From assembly GCF_003334385.1 (NCBI RefSeq), contig NZ_QOWN01000077.1: 6,256 nucleotides of DNA. One strand, given 5' to 3'. The position numbers were made by a program, and so were the translations under genes. The notes under the pieces are model-generated. The model made no database searches and was not told the origin of the DNA. It saw only the letters and a list, made by a program, of their open reading frames with translations. Source of the DNA: Escherichia coli (lineage in GTDB: Bacteria > Pseudomonadota > Gammaproteobacteria > Enterobacterales > Enterobacteriaceae). Shown piece after piece: positions 1 to 6,256 of the stretch (its first letter is position 1; each line of letters begins with the position of its first letter).

Positions 1-20
1 TTATCGTGAGAGTAATTCAT
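1..20 (-). CDS. insL: IS186 transposase, first 6 codons only (MNYSHD); remainder lies outside the window
   Basis: Minus-strand ATG AAT TAC TCT CAC GAT beginning at position 20, 55 bp inside the putative IS terminus at 75. Six codons alone are weak evidence; the call depends on the adjacent inverted-repeat match. Confidence 0.45.
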
Positions 21-75
21 CGGCACGTTAAATCATATCAGGCGTAATACCACAACCCTTAAGTTAGCGCTTATG
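1..75 (-). mobile_element. IS186 (IS4 family) terminal segment; element continues beyond the window start
   Basis: Plus-strand 53-75 caacccttaagttagcgcttatg is the reverse complement of CATAAGCGCTAACTTAAGGGTTG, which I recall as the 23-bp terminal inverted repeat of IS186. On the minus strand an ATG at 20..18 opens MNYSHD, matching the recalled N-terminus of the IS186 transposase InsL. All three plus-strand frames are closed by stops within 1-67, so the flanking cynR frame cannot extend upstream. Identification is from memory, not a database search. Confidence 0.6.
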
Positions 76-341
76 GGCTACATCCACAGGTGGTCATTGA
101 GGCGAACTCAATTAGCGCGGTTCTGGAGCTGATTCGCCGCACTTCCCTTTCCACATTGTTACCAGCAGCGATTGCCACACAACATGACGGGCTTAAAGCT
201 ATTTCTCTTGCCCCGCCACTACTGGAGAGAACGGCGGTTTTGTTGCGGCGGAAAAATAGCTGGCAGACAGCCGCCGCGAAGGCATTTTTGCACATGGCGT
301 TGGATAAATGCGCGGTTGTTGGCGGAAATGAATCACGGTAG
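76..341 (+). pseudogene. cynR: 3' fragment of cynR (LysR-family regulator of the cyanate operon), truncated at the IS186 junction
   Basis: The frame translates ..[86 protein letters not shown] and ends at TAG 339-341, which matches the CynR C-terminus as I recall it. An in-frame TAA at 60-62 lies inside the putative IS inverted repeat, so only about 88 C-terminal codons of a ~299-aa protein remain here. Convergent orientation with codA matches the K-12 codA/cynR arrangement. Confidence 0.75.
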
Positions 342-369
342 CCGCTGACACAGGTCTGCGGCTGGAATT

Positions 370-449
370 GCCTGATGCGCTACGCTTATCAGGCCTACGA
401 GTTCAGTGCTCTACGTAGGCCGGATAAGGCGTTCACGCCGCATCCGGCA
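370..449. repeat. REP pair (BIME-like): gcctgatgcgctacgcttatcaggcctac (370-398) and inverted gtaggccggataaggcgttcacgccgcatccggca (416-449)
   Basis: Classic enterobacterial REP palindromes (GCCTGATGCG...TTATCAGGCCTAC and GCCGGATGCGGCGTGAACGCCTTATCCGGCCTAC families), in inverted orientation. Confidence 0.8.
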
Positions 450-569
450 TAAACTACAGCTGGCAGACAGCCGCTGCGAAGGCATTTTTGCACATGGCGT
501 TGGAGGAATGCGCGGTTGTTGGCGGGAATGAATCACGGTAGCCGCTGACACAGATCAGCGGCTGGAATT

Positions 570-649
570 GCCTGATGCGCTACGCTTATCAGGCCTACGA
601 GTTCAGTGCTCTACGTAGGCCGGATAAGGCGTTCACGCCGCATCCGGCA
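570..649. repeat. Second copy of the REP pair, within tandem-duplication copy 2
   Basis: Same sequences as 370-449 shifted by 200 bp; lies just 3' of the codA stop (678-680) and so is placed to act as the codBA 3' stem-loop or terminator. Confidence 0.8.
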
Positions 650-677
650 TAAACTAAGCTCGCTGTAACCCAGTCGT

Positions 678-1961
678 TCAACGTTTGTAATCGATGGCTT
701 CTGGCTGCTCCAGATATACGGTGGTTTGTGCCGGTTGTGTGCTGGCAATCACCTTGCCGCCACGTACCGAATAACGTACCGGAACCTGACGGCGCAGCGC
801 ATCAAACCCATTTTCAGCCGGCAGGATAATCAGGTTGGCGCTGTTTCCGGCGGCAATGCCGTAATCCTGCAAATTCAACGTCCTTGCGCTGTGGTGGGTG
901 ATTAAATTCAGGCCATCGTTAATCTGCCCGTAGCCCATCAACTGGCAAACATGCAGCCCCATATGCAGCACTTGCAGCATATTCGCCGTTCCCAGCGGAT
1001 ACCACGGATCGAAGACATCATCGTGACCAAAGCAGACGTTAATGCCGGACTCCAGCATCTCTTTAACGCGCGTGATGCCGCGACGTTTTGGATACGTATC
1101 GAAACGTCCTTGCAGATGAATATTGACCAGCGGGTTGGCGACAAAGTTAATACCGGACATTTTCAGCAAGCGGAACAGGCGTGAGGTATACGCCCCGTTA
1201 TAGGAGTGCATTGCCGTGGTGTGGCTGGCGGTGACTCGCGCGCCCATGCCTTCATGGTGCGCCAGGGCAGCAACGGTTTCGACAAAGCGCGACTGCTCGT
1301 CATCGATCTCATCACAGTGAACGTCGATGAGACGGTCGTATTTTTGCGCCAGGGCGAAGGTTTTATGCAGCGACTCCACGCCGTATTCACGGGTAAATTC
1401 AAAATGCGGAATCGCCCCCACTACATCTGCCCCTAAGCGTAACGCCTCTTCCAGCAACGCTTCACCGTTGGGATACGACAAAATCCCTTCCTGAGGGAAG
1501 GCGACGATTTGCAGATCAATCCACGGCGCGACTTCCTGCTTCACTTCCAGCATTGCTTTCAGCGCAGTTAGCGTTGCATCCGAAACATCGACATGGGTAC
1601 GCACATGCTGAATGCCGTTGGCAATCTGCCATTTCAGCGTTTGCCATGCGCGTTGTTTCACATCGTCATGGGTTAATAACGCTTTGCGCTCGGCCCAGCG
1701 TTCAATGCCTTCAAACAGCGTGCCGGACTGATTCCAGTTCGGTTGTCCGGCGGTTTGCGTGGTGTCCAGGTGAATATGTGGCTCCACAAACGGCGGTATA
1801 ACTAAACCTTGTTCGGCATCCAGGCTGTTTTCAGTTATGGGCATCACGCCGGATTGCGCATCAATGGCGCTGATTTTTCCGTCCTGCAGATGAATCTGCC
1901 ACAGCCCCTCTTCGCCTGGTAACCGGGCGTTAATAATTGTTTGTAAAGCGTTATTCGACAC
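678..1961 (-). CDS. codA: Cytosine deaminase (amidohydrolase superfamily), 427 aa, GTG start
   Basis: Translation [38 protein letters not shown]...[10 protein letters not shown] matches E. coli CodA as recalled, with the metal-binding motifs PHIHLD, VHCDE and CFGHDD. The ORF track starts at ATG 1976, but the known protein begins 5 codons later at GTG 1961..1959, preceded by GGAGG (minus-strand ATGTGGAGGCTAACAGTG). Stop TGA at 680..678. Confidence 0.95.
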
Positions 1962-3210
1962 TGTTAGCCTCCACATGCGTCATTGCTGCTGTCGTTTTAC
2001 GATTCAAAATCGGGTTAAGGATCAGATAGCTCAGCGCGCCACCTAATACCGCGTTGACCGGAACAATTCCCGGTAACCAGTGGCCTGCAGCAATCCCCAA
2101 GGCGACCGCCAGAATCGCCACCCAATTGACACTCATCATACGCGTGGTCGCAAAGTGCTCATAGCGGCGACGGTTCATCAGATAGTCGGCGATGATCACG
2201 CCACCCACTGGAGGAATAGCTGCCGAAAGGAAGGTCAACCAGCCGACAAAATTGTTATACAGCCATAATGCGCAGACCGTACCGATAATACCGTTGATTA
2301 CCGAAAGGGTTTTGCTCGACATCCCGGTAATGTTGGCGAAACCTAAACCCGACGCATAGAGTGCGTTATCGTTGGTGGTCCAGATATTCAGCCCCAGCAC
2401 CACAATCGCAGGCAGCAGCAGGCCCTGAGCAATCATCACATCAGAGATATCCGCCATGCCCAGTGCCGCAGCGCCCGCTGCACCGAAAATAAACATCAAC
2501 GAGTTGCCGAGGAAAAAGGCCACCATCGCCACCAGCACCGCCAGTTTGGCATTGCGACCAAACCGGACAAAGTCAGCGGTGAGCGTACCCGCACTGATAA
2601 ATGACCCCACAACCAGCGCCAGCGCGACATTGAAATCTAACGGTTGTGCGGGAACGACCGCTTTTAATGCGTCCAGGCCGCCCATGCCGTTAACAGCCAG
2701 CCACACGGAATAACCGCCCAGGCAGGCGATAGCCGGAACCGCAATCACCGAAAGAACCGTCAGCGCCGAAATGCCAAAAAAGACGGTGACGGTCATCAGT
2801 AAACCGGAAACGGCAATCAGCAAATTAATATCCAGCCCGGTTGCCTTACCCACCGGAATGGCAAACATCGCCACACCGACGCCAAACCAGCCAACCTGAG
2901 TTCCGCCCAGTAGCAGTGAAGGCAGCCATGAGCCTTTAACACCAAACGAGAAGCGAGCAAGAAGATGAGTGGTCAGGCCGGTTTTTGCGCCAATGTAACC
3001 GAGAAATGAAGTGTAAATACCGAGGAGAAGATTACCGATGAGAACTGCGAGGAAGAAATCATGATAGCTAAGACCGGTTCCGAGAGTGCCGCCGGTCCAC
3101 ATACTGGCGGAAAAGAAGGTTAATCCCAGCATGACGAACGTCAATGCCAATACCCCTTTCCGCGCCGACTGCGGGACTGGCCCCTGGCTAAAGTTGTTAT
3201 CTTGCGACAC
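1951..3210 (-). CDS. codB: Cytosine permease (NCS1 family transporter), 419 aa, GTG start
   Basis: Translation [33 protein letters not shown]...THVEANSVE matches E. coli CodB as recalled and is a hydrophobic multi-helix membrane protein. GTG start at 3210..3208 with AAGGGGGA Shine-Dalgarno upstream; stop TAA at 1953..1951 overlaps the codA start by 11 bp. Confidence 0.95.
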
Positions 3211-3276
3211 GAAATTCCCCCTTTTTGCTGTTTGAAACCCAAAAAATCCGCCGCATTCTATTCATCTGAAGATAAA

Positions 3277-3292
3277 AAGCAATCGTTTTCGT
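3277..3292 (-). promoter_or_regulatory. Putative PurR operator (PUR box) of the codBA promoter
   Basis: Minus-strand ACGAAAACGATTGCTT matches the PurR consensus ACGCAAACGTTTGCGT at 13 of 16 positions. It lies about 70-85 bp upstream of the codB GTG, consistent with known purine repression of codBA. Confidence 0.5.
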
Positions 3293-3297
3293 GGGGA

Positions 3298-3325
3298 AAT
3301 ATATTTTTTATATGAATGAGTGCAA
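3298..3325 (-). promoter_or_regulatory. Candidate sigma70 promoter for codBA: -35 TTGCAC (3325..3320), 16-bp spacer, -10 TATATT (3303..3298)
   Basis: Read from the minus strand: TTGCAC TCATTCATATAAAAAA TATATT, placing the transcription start near the PUR box. Motif-level prediction only. Confidence 0.3.
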
Positions 3326-3362
3326 AAAGGTGGGGGAAAAATTATCGGTGTAAAAACAGTGG

Positions 3363-3543
3363 GTAGGCCTGATAAGACGCGTCAGCGTCGCATCAGGCAT
3401 CTGAGCATGGTGTCGGATGCGACGCGAGCGCCTTATCCGACCTACGGTTCAGGTCCGTAGGCATGATAAAACGCGTCAGCGTCGCATCAGGCATCGGCAC
3501 ACAGTGCCGGATGCACCGCGCGACGCATCCGACAATAACCTAC
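3363..3543. repeat. BIME cluster of four REP elements in alternating orientation (3363-3399, 3411-3445, 3458-3494, 3506-3543)
   Basis: gtaggcctgataagacgcgtcagcgtcgcatcaggca, tgtcggatgcgacgcgagcgccttatccgacctac, gtaggcatgataaaacgcgtcagcgtcgcatcaggca and gccggatgcaccgcgcgacgcatccgacaataacctac form two ~95-bp units. The last REP overlaps the stop codon of the upstream ORF (TAG at 3542..3540). Confidence 0.8.
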
Positions 3544-3812
3544 TCTTCCATCGCCTGGCGGATCTGATCCAACGACGCAGGATCATCAATGGTCGTCAGA
3601 TCTCCAGGATCGCGTCCTTCGCAAATCGCCTGGATCGTGCGGCGCAGCATTTTTCCGGATCGCGTTTTTGGCAATTGCGAGACAAACCAGACGTGCGCCG
3701 GGCGGCCAAAGTTGCCAATCTGGCTGTCCACCAGCGCCATAATCGCCTTCTCTTGCGAGTGCGCCACATCACGATCTTCCAGACTGTCGCTCTCTTTCGG
3801 AATGACAAACGC
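3540..3812 (-). pseudogene. prpE: 3' remnant of prpE (last ~89-92 codons plus native stop), fused to yahJ
   Basis: Acyl-CoA synthetase C-terminal signature LPKTRSGKMLRR, and a position immediately upstream of codB separated only by the REP cluster, as for prpE-codB in K-12. The junction is inferred near 3805-3830 (protein ..DASCSAEAVA / FVIPKESD..). Confidence 0.75.
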
Positions 3813-5126
3813 CACCGCCTCGGCGGAACAGGAGGCGTCCACCAGCACAAAGCTGGCGTCATCCTGCGCTTTTGGCCATACACGCTCGCCTTTTTCATTC
3901 AGCGGCAATACATCGCCAGTGGCTAAAAACAGCGAGCGGGAGAGGTTCTGTTCGTTAGGACGAATATAGAGCTGCGCGTACAGATTGGCTTTTTCCAGCA
4001 TGTCGCCCAGACCATAAGGCGACCAGTGGTCGATAACGCTGTCAGTGCCAGTCATCACTTTTACGCCTTTGTCGTGCAACTGTTTGAGCGGCATATGCAG
4101 CGTGCCAATCGGCACCGTCGAGGCGATAGAAATTTGTTGCACCACCATCCGGTTCGCCAGTTCATCTACCTGTTGCTCGTTGAGCGTTGCCAGCGCAAAG
4201 GCGTGACTGATGGTCAGCTTGCCCTTCAGCTGTGGCGTTTTCTCTACCGTTTCAACCATATAATTGATGGCTGCCACGCCTGCCGGAGTGGTTTCGTGCA
4301 GGTGAATATCGACGCCTTTGTCGTAGTCCAGCGCAATCTGGAACATGGTGTCGAGGGATTTTTCCATCGCGCCATCAACACTGGTCGGGTCCAGGCCGCC
4401 GACGTAATGCGCCCCCGCCTGCATCGCTTCACGCATTAAAGGTTCAGATTTCGACAGCAGCAAACCGTGCTGCGGGAAGGCGACGATTTCACACTCAAAG
4501 CCCGCCTGACGTCGCGCCAGCACCGCCTGCAAATTTTGCAGATTTTTCAGGCCGGAAACCGGTTCGATATTGCAGTGGCTGCGGGCAATGGTGGTGCCTT
4601 TCGACTGCAATAAATCAATCAGTTTTTCTGCCCGCTCCTGAGTGTACGGTTGCAGTTCCGGCAGCATTTTCTGCTCGAGTTTGATCATGTCCTGGATGGT
4701 GGTGCCTGCCGGACGATTGAGCGAGCGCCACGGCCCGCCGTAAAAGGTTTTGTCGAGATGAATATGCATGTCGCGGGTGGTGGGCAGCATCAGCTTACCG
4801 CCAGCGTCATAGTGCGGCAGCGTGGCGTCCGGATGCAGCTTGTTCTCGCGCAGGGCGACAATTTTGCCGTCCTGAATCTCCACGGTCTGGCGCGCCGTGC
4901 GGGTCTGCACCGCCACGCCATTTTCGTAGTCAAAACCGGTTTCCAGCAGCACGTTATCGAGATAGTAATGCGGGTCAGTGATTTTCATGGTGTTGTTCGC
5001 TTCGCAGTTTAGGGTGCCAGCTACCGCCGCATGGGCGAGCGGCACAGAGGTACCAAACAGCGCGGCGGCGGTGACCATCTTACCGCTCTGGCTCAGAAAT
5101 TCACGGCGGCTATTGCTTTCTTTCAT
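3540..5126 (-). CDS. yahJ: Chimeric ORF, 528 aa: Tat-signal amidohydrolase (YahJ-like putative deaminase, ~439 aa) fused in frame to the C-terminal 89 aa of propionyl-CoA synthetase PrpE
   Basis: N-terminus MKESNSRREFLSQSGKMVTAAALFGTSVPLAHA carries a twin-arginine motif (SRREFL). The body has amidohydrolase motifs DMHIHLD, DIHLHET and GTDSVIDHW. The C-terminus FVIPKESDSLEDRDVAHSQEKAIMALVDSQIGNFGRPAHVWFVSQLPKTRSGKMLRRTIQAICEGRDPGDLTTIDDPASLDQIRQAMEE contains the acyl-CoA synthetase PKTRSGK motif and matches the PrpE C-terminus as recalled. ATG at 5126..5124 with AAGGA upstream. Confidence 0.8.
   Translation of the reverse strand: MKESNSRREFLSQSGKMVTAAALFGTSVPLAHAAVAGTLNCEANNTMKITDPHYYLDNVLLETGFDYENGVAVQTRTARQTVEIQDGKIVALRENKLHPDATLPHYDAGGKLMLPTTRDMHIHLDKTFYGGPWRSLNRPAGTTIQDMIKLEQKMLPELQPYTQERAEKLIDLLQSKGTTIARSHCNIEPVSGLKNLQNLQAVLARRQAGFECEIVAFPQHGLLLSKSEPLMREAMQAGAHYVGGLDPTSVDGAMEKSLDTMFQIALDYDKGVDIHLHETTPAGVAAINYMVETVEKTPQLKGKLTISHAFALATLNEQQVDELANRMVVQQISIASTVPIGTLHMPLKQLHDKGVKVMTGTDSVIDHWSPYGLGDMLEKANLYAQLYIRPNEQNLSRSLFLATGDVLPLNEKGERVWPKAQDDASFVLVDASCSAEAVAFVIPKESDSLEDRDVAHSQEKAIMALVDSQIGNFGRPAHVWFVSQLPKTRSGKMLRRTIQAICEGRDPGDLTTIDDPASLDQIRQAMEE
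5028..5126 (-). other. Predicted Tat (twin-arginine) signal peptide of the YahJ-like protein, ~33 aa, likely cleaved after AHA
   Basis: S-R-R-E-F-L motif followed by a hydrophobic stretch VTAAALFGTSVPL and an AxA site (AHA|AVAG). Confidence 0.55.
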
Positions 5127-5135
5127 CTTACGTCC

Positions 5136-6086
5136 TTACGTTTTAATAATATGAGTGCCCGTTTCGCCGCGCAGCGCCGCAGGCAGGCATTCCGGCGTGG
5201 TGATAATCACTTCTTTGCCGCCTTGTTCTAAAAATGTCAGGCTGGCGATGATTTTTGGCAACATGCTGCCGGGCGGGAAATGCCCTTCCTGCATATAGCG
5301 GGTCATGGTGGCAATATCCACCCGATCGAGCGCCTGCTGCTGCGGTTTGCCAAAGTGAATACACACTTTTTCGACGCCAGTGGTGATCACAAGAATGTCG
5401 GCGTGAATTTCACGGGCCAGCAGCGCGGTAGAGAGATCTTTGTCGATAACCGCGTCCACGCTTTGGTAATCTCCCGCGTCAGTACGCACTACCGGAATTC
5501 CACCGCCGCCCGCGCCAATTACGACAAAACCTTGTTGGATCAGCGCTTTAATGGCAGGTGCTTCGACAATACGTTTCGGTTCCGGCGAGGCGACCACGCG
5601 GCGATAGCCCCGCCCGGCATCTTCAACAAAACACCAGTCAGGGTTTGCCTTTTGTAATTCGTCACGCTGGCTGTCACTAAAGAATGCGCCGATGGGCTTG
5701 GTGGGATGGGCAAAACCTGGATCGTTTTTATCCACTTCCACCTGAGTCACCACGGTGACGGCTTTCTTCTCGCCGTGACGCGCCAGCCGGTTATTCAGCG
5801 CCTGTTGGATCAGATAGCCGATGCCGCCCTGCGTATCTGCCACACAGTTCGCCAGCGGCGTTAAGGGCAGCCCTTCGCGCTTGTGGGCAATCTCCGCACG
5901 GCGTAAATCCAGCCCGACCTGCGGCCCGTTGCCGTGGGTCAGCACAATGTCGTAATCGGAAGCCAGCATTTCCAGCACCGTATCGGCGACGGCTTTCACC
6001 GCCTCCGCCTGATGCTCAATCGACTGGCTGGCGTTATCTTTGATAATGCTGTTGCCACCAATGGCAACGACCACAAGCTCTTTCAT
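5136..6086 (-). CDS. yahI: Carbamate kinase-like protein (amino acid kinase family), 316 aa
   Basis: Translation MKELVVVAIGGNSI...LTHGNGPQVG...VIGAGGGGIPV... carries carbamate kinase / amino-acid-kinase signatures and matches E. coli YahI as recalled. Stop TAA at 5138..5136 lies 9 bp upstream of the yahJ ATG, suggesting an operon. Confidence 0.9.
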   Translation of the reverse strand: MKELVVVAIGGNSIIKDNASQSIEHQAEAVKAVADTVLEMLASDYDIVLTHGNGPQVGLDLRRAEIAHKREGLPLTPLANCVADTQGGIGYLIQQALNNRLARHGEKKAVTVVTQVEVDKNDPGFAHPTKPIGAFFSDSQRDELQKANPDWCFVEDAGRGYRRVVASPEPKRIVEAPAIKALIQQGFVVIGAGGGGIPVVRTDAGDYQSVDAVIDKDLSTALLAREIHADILVITTGVEKVCIHFGKPQQQALDRVDIATMTRYMQEGHFPPGSMLPKIIASLTFLEQGGKEVIITTPECLPAALRGETGTHIIKT

Positions 6087-6136
6087 GTTGTTATGTCCGC
6101 TACAGAGGGTGATGGGGTTATGACCAACGCCAGACT

Positions 6137-6256
6137 GCCTGATGCGCTACGCTTATCAGGCCTACAATTCTCGCGCCACTCGTAGGCCGGATAAGGCGTT
6201 CACGCCGCATCCGGCAATGGTGACAAATGCCTGATGCGCTACGCTTATCAGGCCTA
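6137..6256. repeat. BIME/REP cluster of at least three REPs (6137-6165, 6182-6216, 6229-6256), running off the window end
   Basis: gcctgatgcgctacgcttatcaggcctac, inverted gtaggccggataaggcgttcacgccgcatccggca, then gcctgatgcgctacgcttatcaggccta; the same REP family as at 370-449. Confidence 0.8.

Follow-up and report, generated by a model that had tools for sequence, protein, structure and literature searches.

The yahJ-prpE locus and its junction

The stretch of DNA analysed here, contig NZ_QOWN01000077.1 of the Escherichia coli assembly GCF_003334385.1 (6,256 bp; hereafter the window), carries a chimeric open reading frame (ORF) in which most of yahJ is joined in frame to the 3' end of prpE; codB and codA lie on one side of it and yahI on the other (Table 1). 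Two alignments to E. coli K-12 MG1655 define the structure of the locus. In BLASTN comparisons, positions 75..3819 are 100% identical to K-12 from the 3' part of cynR through codA and codB into prpE, of which the final 280 nt are present. Positions 3810..6256 are 100% identical from a yahJ that lacks its 3' end through yahI to the array of repetitive extragenic palindromic (REP) elements beyond. The two blocks overlap by 10 bp at 3810..3819, where the plus strand reads CGCCACCGCC and the coding strand GGCGGTGGCG. K-12 has one copy of CGCCACCGCC in prpE and one in yahJ, in direct orientation, with the copy starts 11,881 bp apart (positions 16091 and 27972 of the K-12 region, L001); in strain MEI4BO-21, in which the interval is intact, the two copies are at positions 4723 and 16603 (region L007).

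When the 11,880 bp between the MEI4BO-21 repeat copies are removed in silico, the window is reproduced at 6256 of 6256 bases. This reconstruction is as direct a proof of a simple deletion as sequence alone permits. The deletion measures 11,881 bp against K-12, 11,880 bp against MEI4BO-21, and about 11,788 bp against strain E308. It removed 1,617 nt of prpE, the genes prpD, prpC, prpB, prpR, yahO, yahN, yahM, yahL, and yahK, as well as the final 21 codons of yahJ; codBA and the region upstream of it are unaffected. Direct reading and a repeat scan of the junction found no insertion sequence (IS), REP element, scar, filler, or foreign DNA. A deletion mediated by IS or REP elements was considered and rejected, as neither element is present at the junction.

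Table 1. Features of the window, with the chimeric ORF and its parts first
Feature	Position	Strand	Basis
yahJ'-'prpE chimeric ORF, 528 aa + stop	3540..5126	-	ORF listing, K-12 comparison, domain searches, exact protein in nr
yahJ-derived part, codons 1-436 (to residue 439 of 460 including the shared repeat)	3820..5126	-	100% identity to K-12 yahJ
Deletion junction, one retained 10-bp direct-repeat copy, CGCCACCGCC (+) / GGCGGTGGCG (-), Ala-Val-Ala	3810..3819		Alignments to K-12 and MEI4BO-21
prpE-derived 3' end, PrpE residues 540-628 + native stop, PKTRSGK motif	3540..3809	-	K-12 comparison, domain searches
Twin-arginine translocation (Tat) signal peptide coding sequence, MKESNSRREFLSQSGKMVTAAALFGTSVPLAHA	5028..5126	-	Ortholog conservation, low pLDDT, PMC7549933
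REP/bacterial interspersed mosaic elements (BIME), natively 3' of prpE, now 3' of the fusion ORF	3363..3520		Rfam match, repeat family D4
codB, cytosine permease, intact right-hand deletion flank	1951..3210	-	ORF listing, K-12 comparison
codA, cytosine deaminase, intact	678..1961	-	ORF listing, K-12 comparison
yahI, carbamate kinase family, intact, 9 bp upstream of the fusion start	5136..6086	-	ORF listing, K-12
IS4-family IS421/IS186 terminus inserted in cynR, contig ends inside	1..74		Non-collinear with K-12, shared with intact relatives

An earlier reading of the window, made from the letters and their ORFs alone (the sequence-only reading), had anticipated most of this. The 528-aa ORF with a YahJ-like start that it described at 3540-5126 is the one in the ORF listing, with 439 residues matching YahJ. 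Comparison with the K-12 proteins bears out its PrpE tail, the last 89 residues with the native stop, and the fusion is in frame as it had said, the repeat copies in yahJ and prpE sharing their codon phase. The breakpoint, placed around 3805-3830, was found inside that interval, and the Ala-Val-Ala microhomology that it suggested exists as a 10-bp repeat encoding Ala-Val-Ala in both genes. The K-12 gene order that it assumed around yahI-yahJ...prp...codBA agrees with K-12, E308, and MEI4BO-21. It placed the endpoints of the deletion correctly, in the 3' parts of yahJ and prpE, and underestimated the size, which is 11.9 kb rather than ~10 kb.

We conclude that the window very probably records a lineage-specific chromosomal deletion in a wild K-12-like E. 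coli, ~11.9 kb long and formed via the 10-bp direct repeat GGCGGTGGCG, with the chimera as a likely inert product. Recombination between the repeat copies near the 3' ends of yahJ and prpE would have proceeded by replication slippage or by annealing or end-joining after a double-strand break. One repeat copy would have stayed at the junction while everything between the copies was lost, and the common codon phase of the two copies would have placed the Tat signal, YahJ residues 1-439, and PrpE residues 540-628 in one reading frame. By our own arithmetic, a random join has a chance of roughly 1 in 100,000 of showing an overlap of at least 10 bases; thus, the repeat was used and is not incidental.

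The frame of the fusion needs no special explanation. In K-12, 176 pairs of direct repeats of at least 10 bp fall within the prpE-yahJ interval and eight between prpE and yahJ themselves, and in seven of these eight exact pairs the two copies agree in codon phase. A chimera that stays in frame is thus what one would expect by default, and it says nothing in favour of selection. This phase bias presumably arises because shared 10-mers mirror codon strings that coding sequences have in common, and it suggests that microhomology deletions between co-oriented genes are generally biased towards in-frame fusions.

The yahJ copy of the repeat coincides in part with a short G+C hairpin (CCGCC-GAG-GCGG, 3812-3826 on the minus strand), which after the fusion is followed by a T-rich stretch of prpE. 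The weak terminator-like match at this place is not significant by comparison with shuffled sequences (5 sites vs 2.6 +/- 1.3 expected). A hairpin at the breakpoint could have aided slippage.

Composition and predicted structure of the chimera

The chimeric ORF starts with ATG in the ORF listing of the window. Its product would have a mass of about 58 kDa as a precursor and 55 kDa when mature. K-12 YahJ (460 aa) is identical to its first 439 residues and K-12 PrpE (628 aa) to its last 92; the Ala-Val-Ala at the join is common to both proteins, which leaves 89 residues that come from PrpE only and end at the native prpE stop. Pfam assigns Amidohydro_3/Amidohydro_1 to residues 106-435 and AMP-binding_C to residues 437-492, the latter covering only model positions 29-76 of 76. 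NCBIfam recognizes the chimera as the PRK06846 amidohydrolase with 682.3 bits (cut-off 447) over residues 49-447 and profile positions 2-398 of 412, whereas the propion_prpE model (TIGR02316) scores 147.5 bits, below its cut-off of 827.4, and matches at profile positions 531-628 only. The PKTRSGK motif with the catalytic/regulatory lysine is kept (Lys592 of PrpE is Lys492 of the fusion), as are the last two thirds of the C-terminal subdomain; the adenylation domain and the first part of that subdomain are absent. Without an adenylation domain and without a full C-terminal subdomain, the chimera therefore cannot be a ligase. Judged by its sequence, it is YahJ cut short and extended by a PrpE fragment, and does not qualify as PrpE.

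The N-terminal part of the chimera retains the barrel and the Tat signal of YahJ. The metal and catalytic columns of the barrel (H121, H123, D125, H275, H277, and D362) are invariant in an alignment of 68 sequences that was built from a search of representatives at 50% identity, and all of them lie within the retained YahJ residues 1-439. The Tat motif is intact as well: residues 6-33 (SRREFLS...AHA) comprise the S/T-R-R-x-F-L motif, a hydrophobic stretch, and an A-x-A cleavage site, with R7, R8, and F10 invariant in orthologs, and residues 1-45 have low predicted local distance difference test (pLDDT) values in the YahJ model described below. The YahJ signal peptide has been listed as a Tat signal and YahJ as a Tat substrate of unknown function; in the same work, deletion of yahJ in a strain of extraintestinal pathogenic E. 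coli (ExPEC) caused a mild competitive defect, with a competitive index (CI) of 0.70 (PMC7549933).

The end of YahJ that was lost is a conserved part of the family. Identity to YahJ stops at residue 439, and residues R440, S442, R444, F448, and G451 of the missing tail are invariant in orthologs down to 70% identity. The 68-sequence alignment, which extends to 27% identity, has residues at positions 440-454 in every sequence, and G451 is conserved in 67. The AlphaFold model of YahJ obtained with the 68-sequence alignment has a pLDDT of 90.9 and a predicted template modeling (pTM) score of 0.87; an initial model based on 25 close orthologs (pLDDT 60.7, with the C-terminus below 50) was discarded. 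In the accepted model, a helix at residues 434-440 is followed by two terminal strands at 444-449 and 452-456 with pLDDT values of 95-98, and its fold matches those of AtzC and the E. coli cytosine deaminase CodA (6nbo, template modeling [TM] score 0.88; 1k6w); there are sequence-level matches in the PDB as well. In the AtzC/cytosine-deaminase-type fold, the beta-sandwich alongside the barrel is built from N- and C-terminal strands together. The chimera lacks the conserved C-terminal beta-hairpin (residues 444-456): the break after residue 439 takes both terminal strands, from which we infer that the protein is misfolded or at least impaired. Tat transports proteins in the folded state, and its quality control may block export of the chimera. 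Family conservation and the predicted structure together indicate that the chimera is probably an inert, non-functional by-product of the deletion.

Carriers, relatives, and rival explanations

By exact-sequence look-up, the 528-aa protein is encoded on at least seven contigs, and it is present in the NCBI non-redundant (nr) database under at least four accessions, with HAH1515806.1, HAH9036240.1, HAM4715552.1, and RCQ56490.1 among them, all named just 'amidohydrolase family protein'. LYBI01000036.1 (38.6 kb), QOWN01000077.1 (6,256 bp, the window itself), and a Logan contig of run ERR1948963 agree in every base across the junction. LYBI01000036.1 runs unbroken through betT-yahA...yahI-fusion-codB-codA-cynR'; thus, the prp genes are not adjacent to the fusion. 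At the locus, in the window and in this 38.6-kb sister contig, prpR and prpBCDE are absent from their place between yahO and codB. Of 5,426 complete E. coli genomes, not one spans the yahJ-prpE junction; in 4,868 of these, at least 80% of the deleted interval is found in one place, and in 181 there is no trace of it. Loss of the yahK-prp region is uncommon, not unique, and the yahJ-prpE allele is rare. A literature search, including searches by assembly and run accessions, found no publication describing it. The sole paper found that names both yahJ and prpE concerns DGF-298, which carries an engineered 125,568-bp deletion with different endpoints and was rejected as a carrier.

The IS421-cynR junction at the edge of the window is shared exactly by 10 complete E. 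coli genomes from a chicken farm, crow, pig, giant panda, cattle, soil, and humans, which could reflect either shared descent or an insertion hot spot for IS186. MEI4BO-21, the closest intact relative, combines this marker with an intact interval, located at 3,630,732-3,642,611 of NZ_CM149565.1, and is 100% identical to the 10 kb upstream in the sister contig LYBI01000036.1. Its prpR (L007 10602-12187) is annotated as frameshifted, which accounts for the 11,880 vs 11,881 bp given above. A genuine frameshift could mean that the prp operon was no longer active in the clade when the deletion arose; a sequencing error may also explain it. E308 (L006 32924-35421) likewise has the IS421-cynR marker, together with its own deletion of the yahI 5' end and yahH and an internal stop in yahG. 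From these sequences, the yah cluster appears to be decaying independently in related strains. Such decay in intact relatives is compatible with weak selection on the region, with the same reservation about the prpR frameshift. Strain M23314, a candidate second carrier whose match covers 83% of the window, proved to have an unrelated IS621-associated rearrangement with yahJ intact. There (L002 5546-10489), codBA has a copy of IS621 (IS110 family) on each side and is placed between yahI and mhpT; yahJ-yahM is found on the opposite side.

Besides a natural deletion with an inert product, the locus could be explained in four ways. Three of them dispute the deletion or its natural origin. The window is a short complete contig of 6,256 bp bounded on one side by the repeat IS421 and on the other by REP units, as might be expected if yahJ had been wrongly joined to prpE over a short repeat and the interval were really intact. 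However, another NCBI assembly, in its 38.6-kb contig, and the Logan assembly of a separate run have the identical junction, and the chimeric protein has four nr accessions. The k-mers of assemblers are all longer than 10 bp, so that a repeat of this length cannot cause a collapse. On these grounds, a misassembly is very unlikely. Deliberate removal of the region, for example in a genome-reduction or recombineering construct, would fit flanks that are 100% identical to K-12 MG1655, and engineered strains without the region do exist (DGF-298, 125,568 bp). On the other hand, the endpoints in DGF-298 are wholly different, both breaks here fall within ORFs, at a 10-bp repeat that is native, and show neither a scar nor a marker nor designed homology, and the IS421 in cynR is not found in K-12 and is common to isolates from varied animals, soil, and humans. 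Three of the nr accessions are, moreover, third-party assemblies of public reads. A laboratory origin is accordingly highly improbable. Finally, an uninterrupted ORF with the plain nr label 'amidohydrolase family protein' might be taken for a natural long isoform of YahJ or an ancient fusion of an amidohydrolase with an ANL C-terminal domain. In a search of 5.8 billion proteins, no native YahJ ending in PrpE sequence was seen among the best 120 of 3,688 homologs: these are about 460 aa long, have about 84% query coverage, and lack PF13193. YahJ orthologs were found in Escherichia, Citrobacter, Klebsiella, Serratia, Xenorhabdus, Erwinia, and others. Furthermore, the DNA of the tail is 100% identical to the prpE 3' end, including the downstream REP region and codBA, and yahJ and prpE are separate genes in the intact relatives. 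The probability of such an isoform is practically nil. The sequence-only reading had itself named YahJ proteins natively ending in PrpE sequence, an artefactual junction, and intact prpRBCDE next to the locus as observations that would speak against it; what we see instead are homologs of about 460 aa without AMP-binding_C, the same junction in three separately produced contigs, and a 38.6-kb contig that reads from the fusion to codBA.

The remaining possibility accepts the deletion and holds that the chimera is expressed, stable, Tat-exported, and active or altered, that the loss of prp was selected (e.g., by propionate stress) and is no neutral accident, or both. It can point to the retained Tat signal, catalytic-site columns (H121, H123, H275, H277, and D362), and whole barrel, to an intact yahI upstream and operon context, and to a lineage that lasted long enough to be sampled several times; the prpR frameshift of MEI4BO-21 and the yahI/yahG decay of E308 hint at relaxed or changed selection in the clade. 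In its fullest form, a C-terminal fragment of an acyl-CoA synthetase with its regulatory lysine would be carried into the periplasm on an active amidohydrolase barrel, and/or prp loss would have been favoured by avoidance of toxic 2-methylcitrate intermediates in a propionate-rich gut, which we regard as improbable. The two lost strands are conserved in the family and confidently structured, the PrpE piece is an incomplete subdomain, the in-frame result is expected by default, and an allele present in 0 of 5,426 complete genomes gives no sign of spread; overall, a functional chimera or a selected loss of prp is unlikely.

Some points nevertheless weigh against a simple deletion with an inert product. 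The FVIPK that follows the junction resembles the native RISPR and starts a beta-strand in PrpE-type enzymes, a similarity that also favours a functional chimera, and it might conceivably substitute in part for the lost structure. Absence of the 11.9-kb segment is read at the locus only, and the segment could in principle have been relocated elsewhere in the genome. Support for the junction comes from assembled contigs, not from reads. The carriers may perhaps be one clone, in which case several assemblies counter misassembly and do not show recurrence. Slippage and break repair, lastly, are not distinguishable by reading the sequence.

Expected consequences, flanking features, and known counterparts

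Enterobacteria catabolise propionate by the 2-methylcitrate cycle, in which prpBCDE has its role (PMC5690661). The locus has no prpR, prpB, prpC, prpD, or functional prpE; therefore, no 2-methylcitrate cycle is encoded there, and carriers of the deletion are expected, from the gene content of the locus, not to grow on propionate as a carbon source. They would also lack yahK (NADPH aldehyde reductase), yahL, yahM, yahN (LysE-family transporter), and yahO, and YahJ activity is probably lost too. The junction thus offers a clean marker, testable by polymerase chain reaction (PCR), for one sub-lineage of E. coli, and predicts a propionate-negative phenotype without YahK-YahO.

Several repeats and remnants accompany the genes around the fusion. 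What remains of the cynR 3' part occupies window positions 75-341. Between cynR and codA there is a 200-bp tandem duplication (258-456 and 458-656, 97% identical) with REP-type palindromic units; it is found in K-12 too, and related 81-nt units occur at 6136-6216. Rfam model RF02564 (naRNA4/CssrE, a REP-derived nucleoid-associated RNA) has two matches above the gathering threshold, at 3366-3442 (-) and 6185-6254 (+), the first of which sits just 3' of the stop of the fusion ORF. A 25-nt direct repeat with 88% identity (1486-1510 vs 4465-4489) reflects the paralogy of codA and yahJ, with the motif VAFPQxG. Both genes encode amidohydrolases of the AtzC/cytosine-deaminase type, and after the deletion only codB lies between them.

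With regard to its parts, the chimera can be compared with two known proteins. It shares with K-12 YahJ (PRK06846, AtzC/cytosine-deaminase-type fold, predicted Tat substrate) residues 1-439, the twin-arginine signal, and the metal-binding residues, and differs in that the last 21 residues, with the conserved terminal beta-hairpin, are swapped for 89 unrelated ones. With K-12 PrpE (propionate--CoA ligase, TIGR02316, ANL superfamily) it shares the last 89-92 residues, including PKTRSGK, whereas the whole adenylation domain and the start of the C-terminal subdomain are gone. Automatic annotation hides events of this kind: the chimera is filed as an 'amidohydrolase family protein'.

Other losses or rearrangements of the region are known from DGF-298, from M23314 with its IS621-flanked codBA, and from the 181 genomes without the interval. 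In all of these the prp/yah genes are likewise absent or displaced; however, the endpoints and mechanisms differ, and none makes the yahJ-prpE junction. The closer counterparts are deletions between short repeats, with the classical lacI deletions and LigA-dependent alternative end-joining as the familiar examples in E. coli. Deletions of 12.9-35 kb with joints at micro-homologies were mapped in the same E. coli neighbourhood when Cas9 had cut lacZ, and LigA-dependent end-joining gives deletions of up to 40 kb (PMC4872102). The yahJ-prpE fusion is a previously unremarked instance of this well-known class. It brings to light no mechanism, system, or protein family that is new, would come as no surprise to a specialist, and bears on no question of long standing; its value is that of a textbook-quality natural microhomology-mediated deletion, with an ancestor that can be reconstructed to the base, and of an illustration of the in-frame tendency of deletions between co-oriented genes. 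Like other short-direct-repeat deletions in E. coli, it has collinear flanks, keeps one repeat copy, contains no insert, and falls within the documented size range, and with the Cas9-induced lac deletions it shares the chromosomal neighbourhood (the lac-cyn-cod-prp region). In contrast to laboratory short-repeat deletions, which were induced or selected, the yahJ-prpE allele is natural and fixed in a wild lineage.

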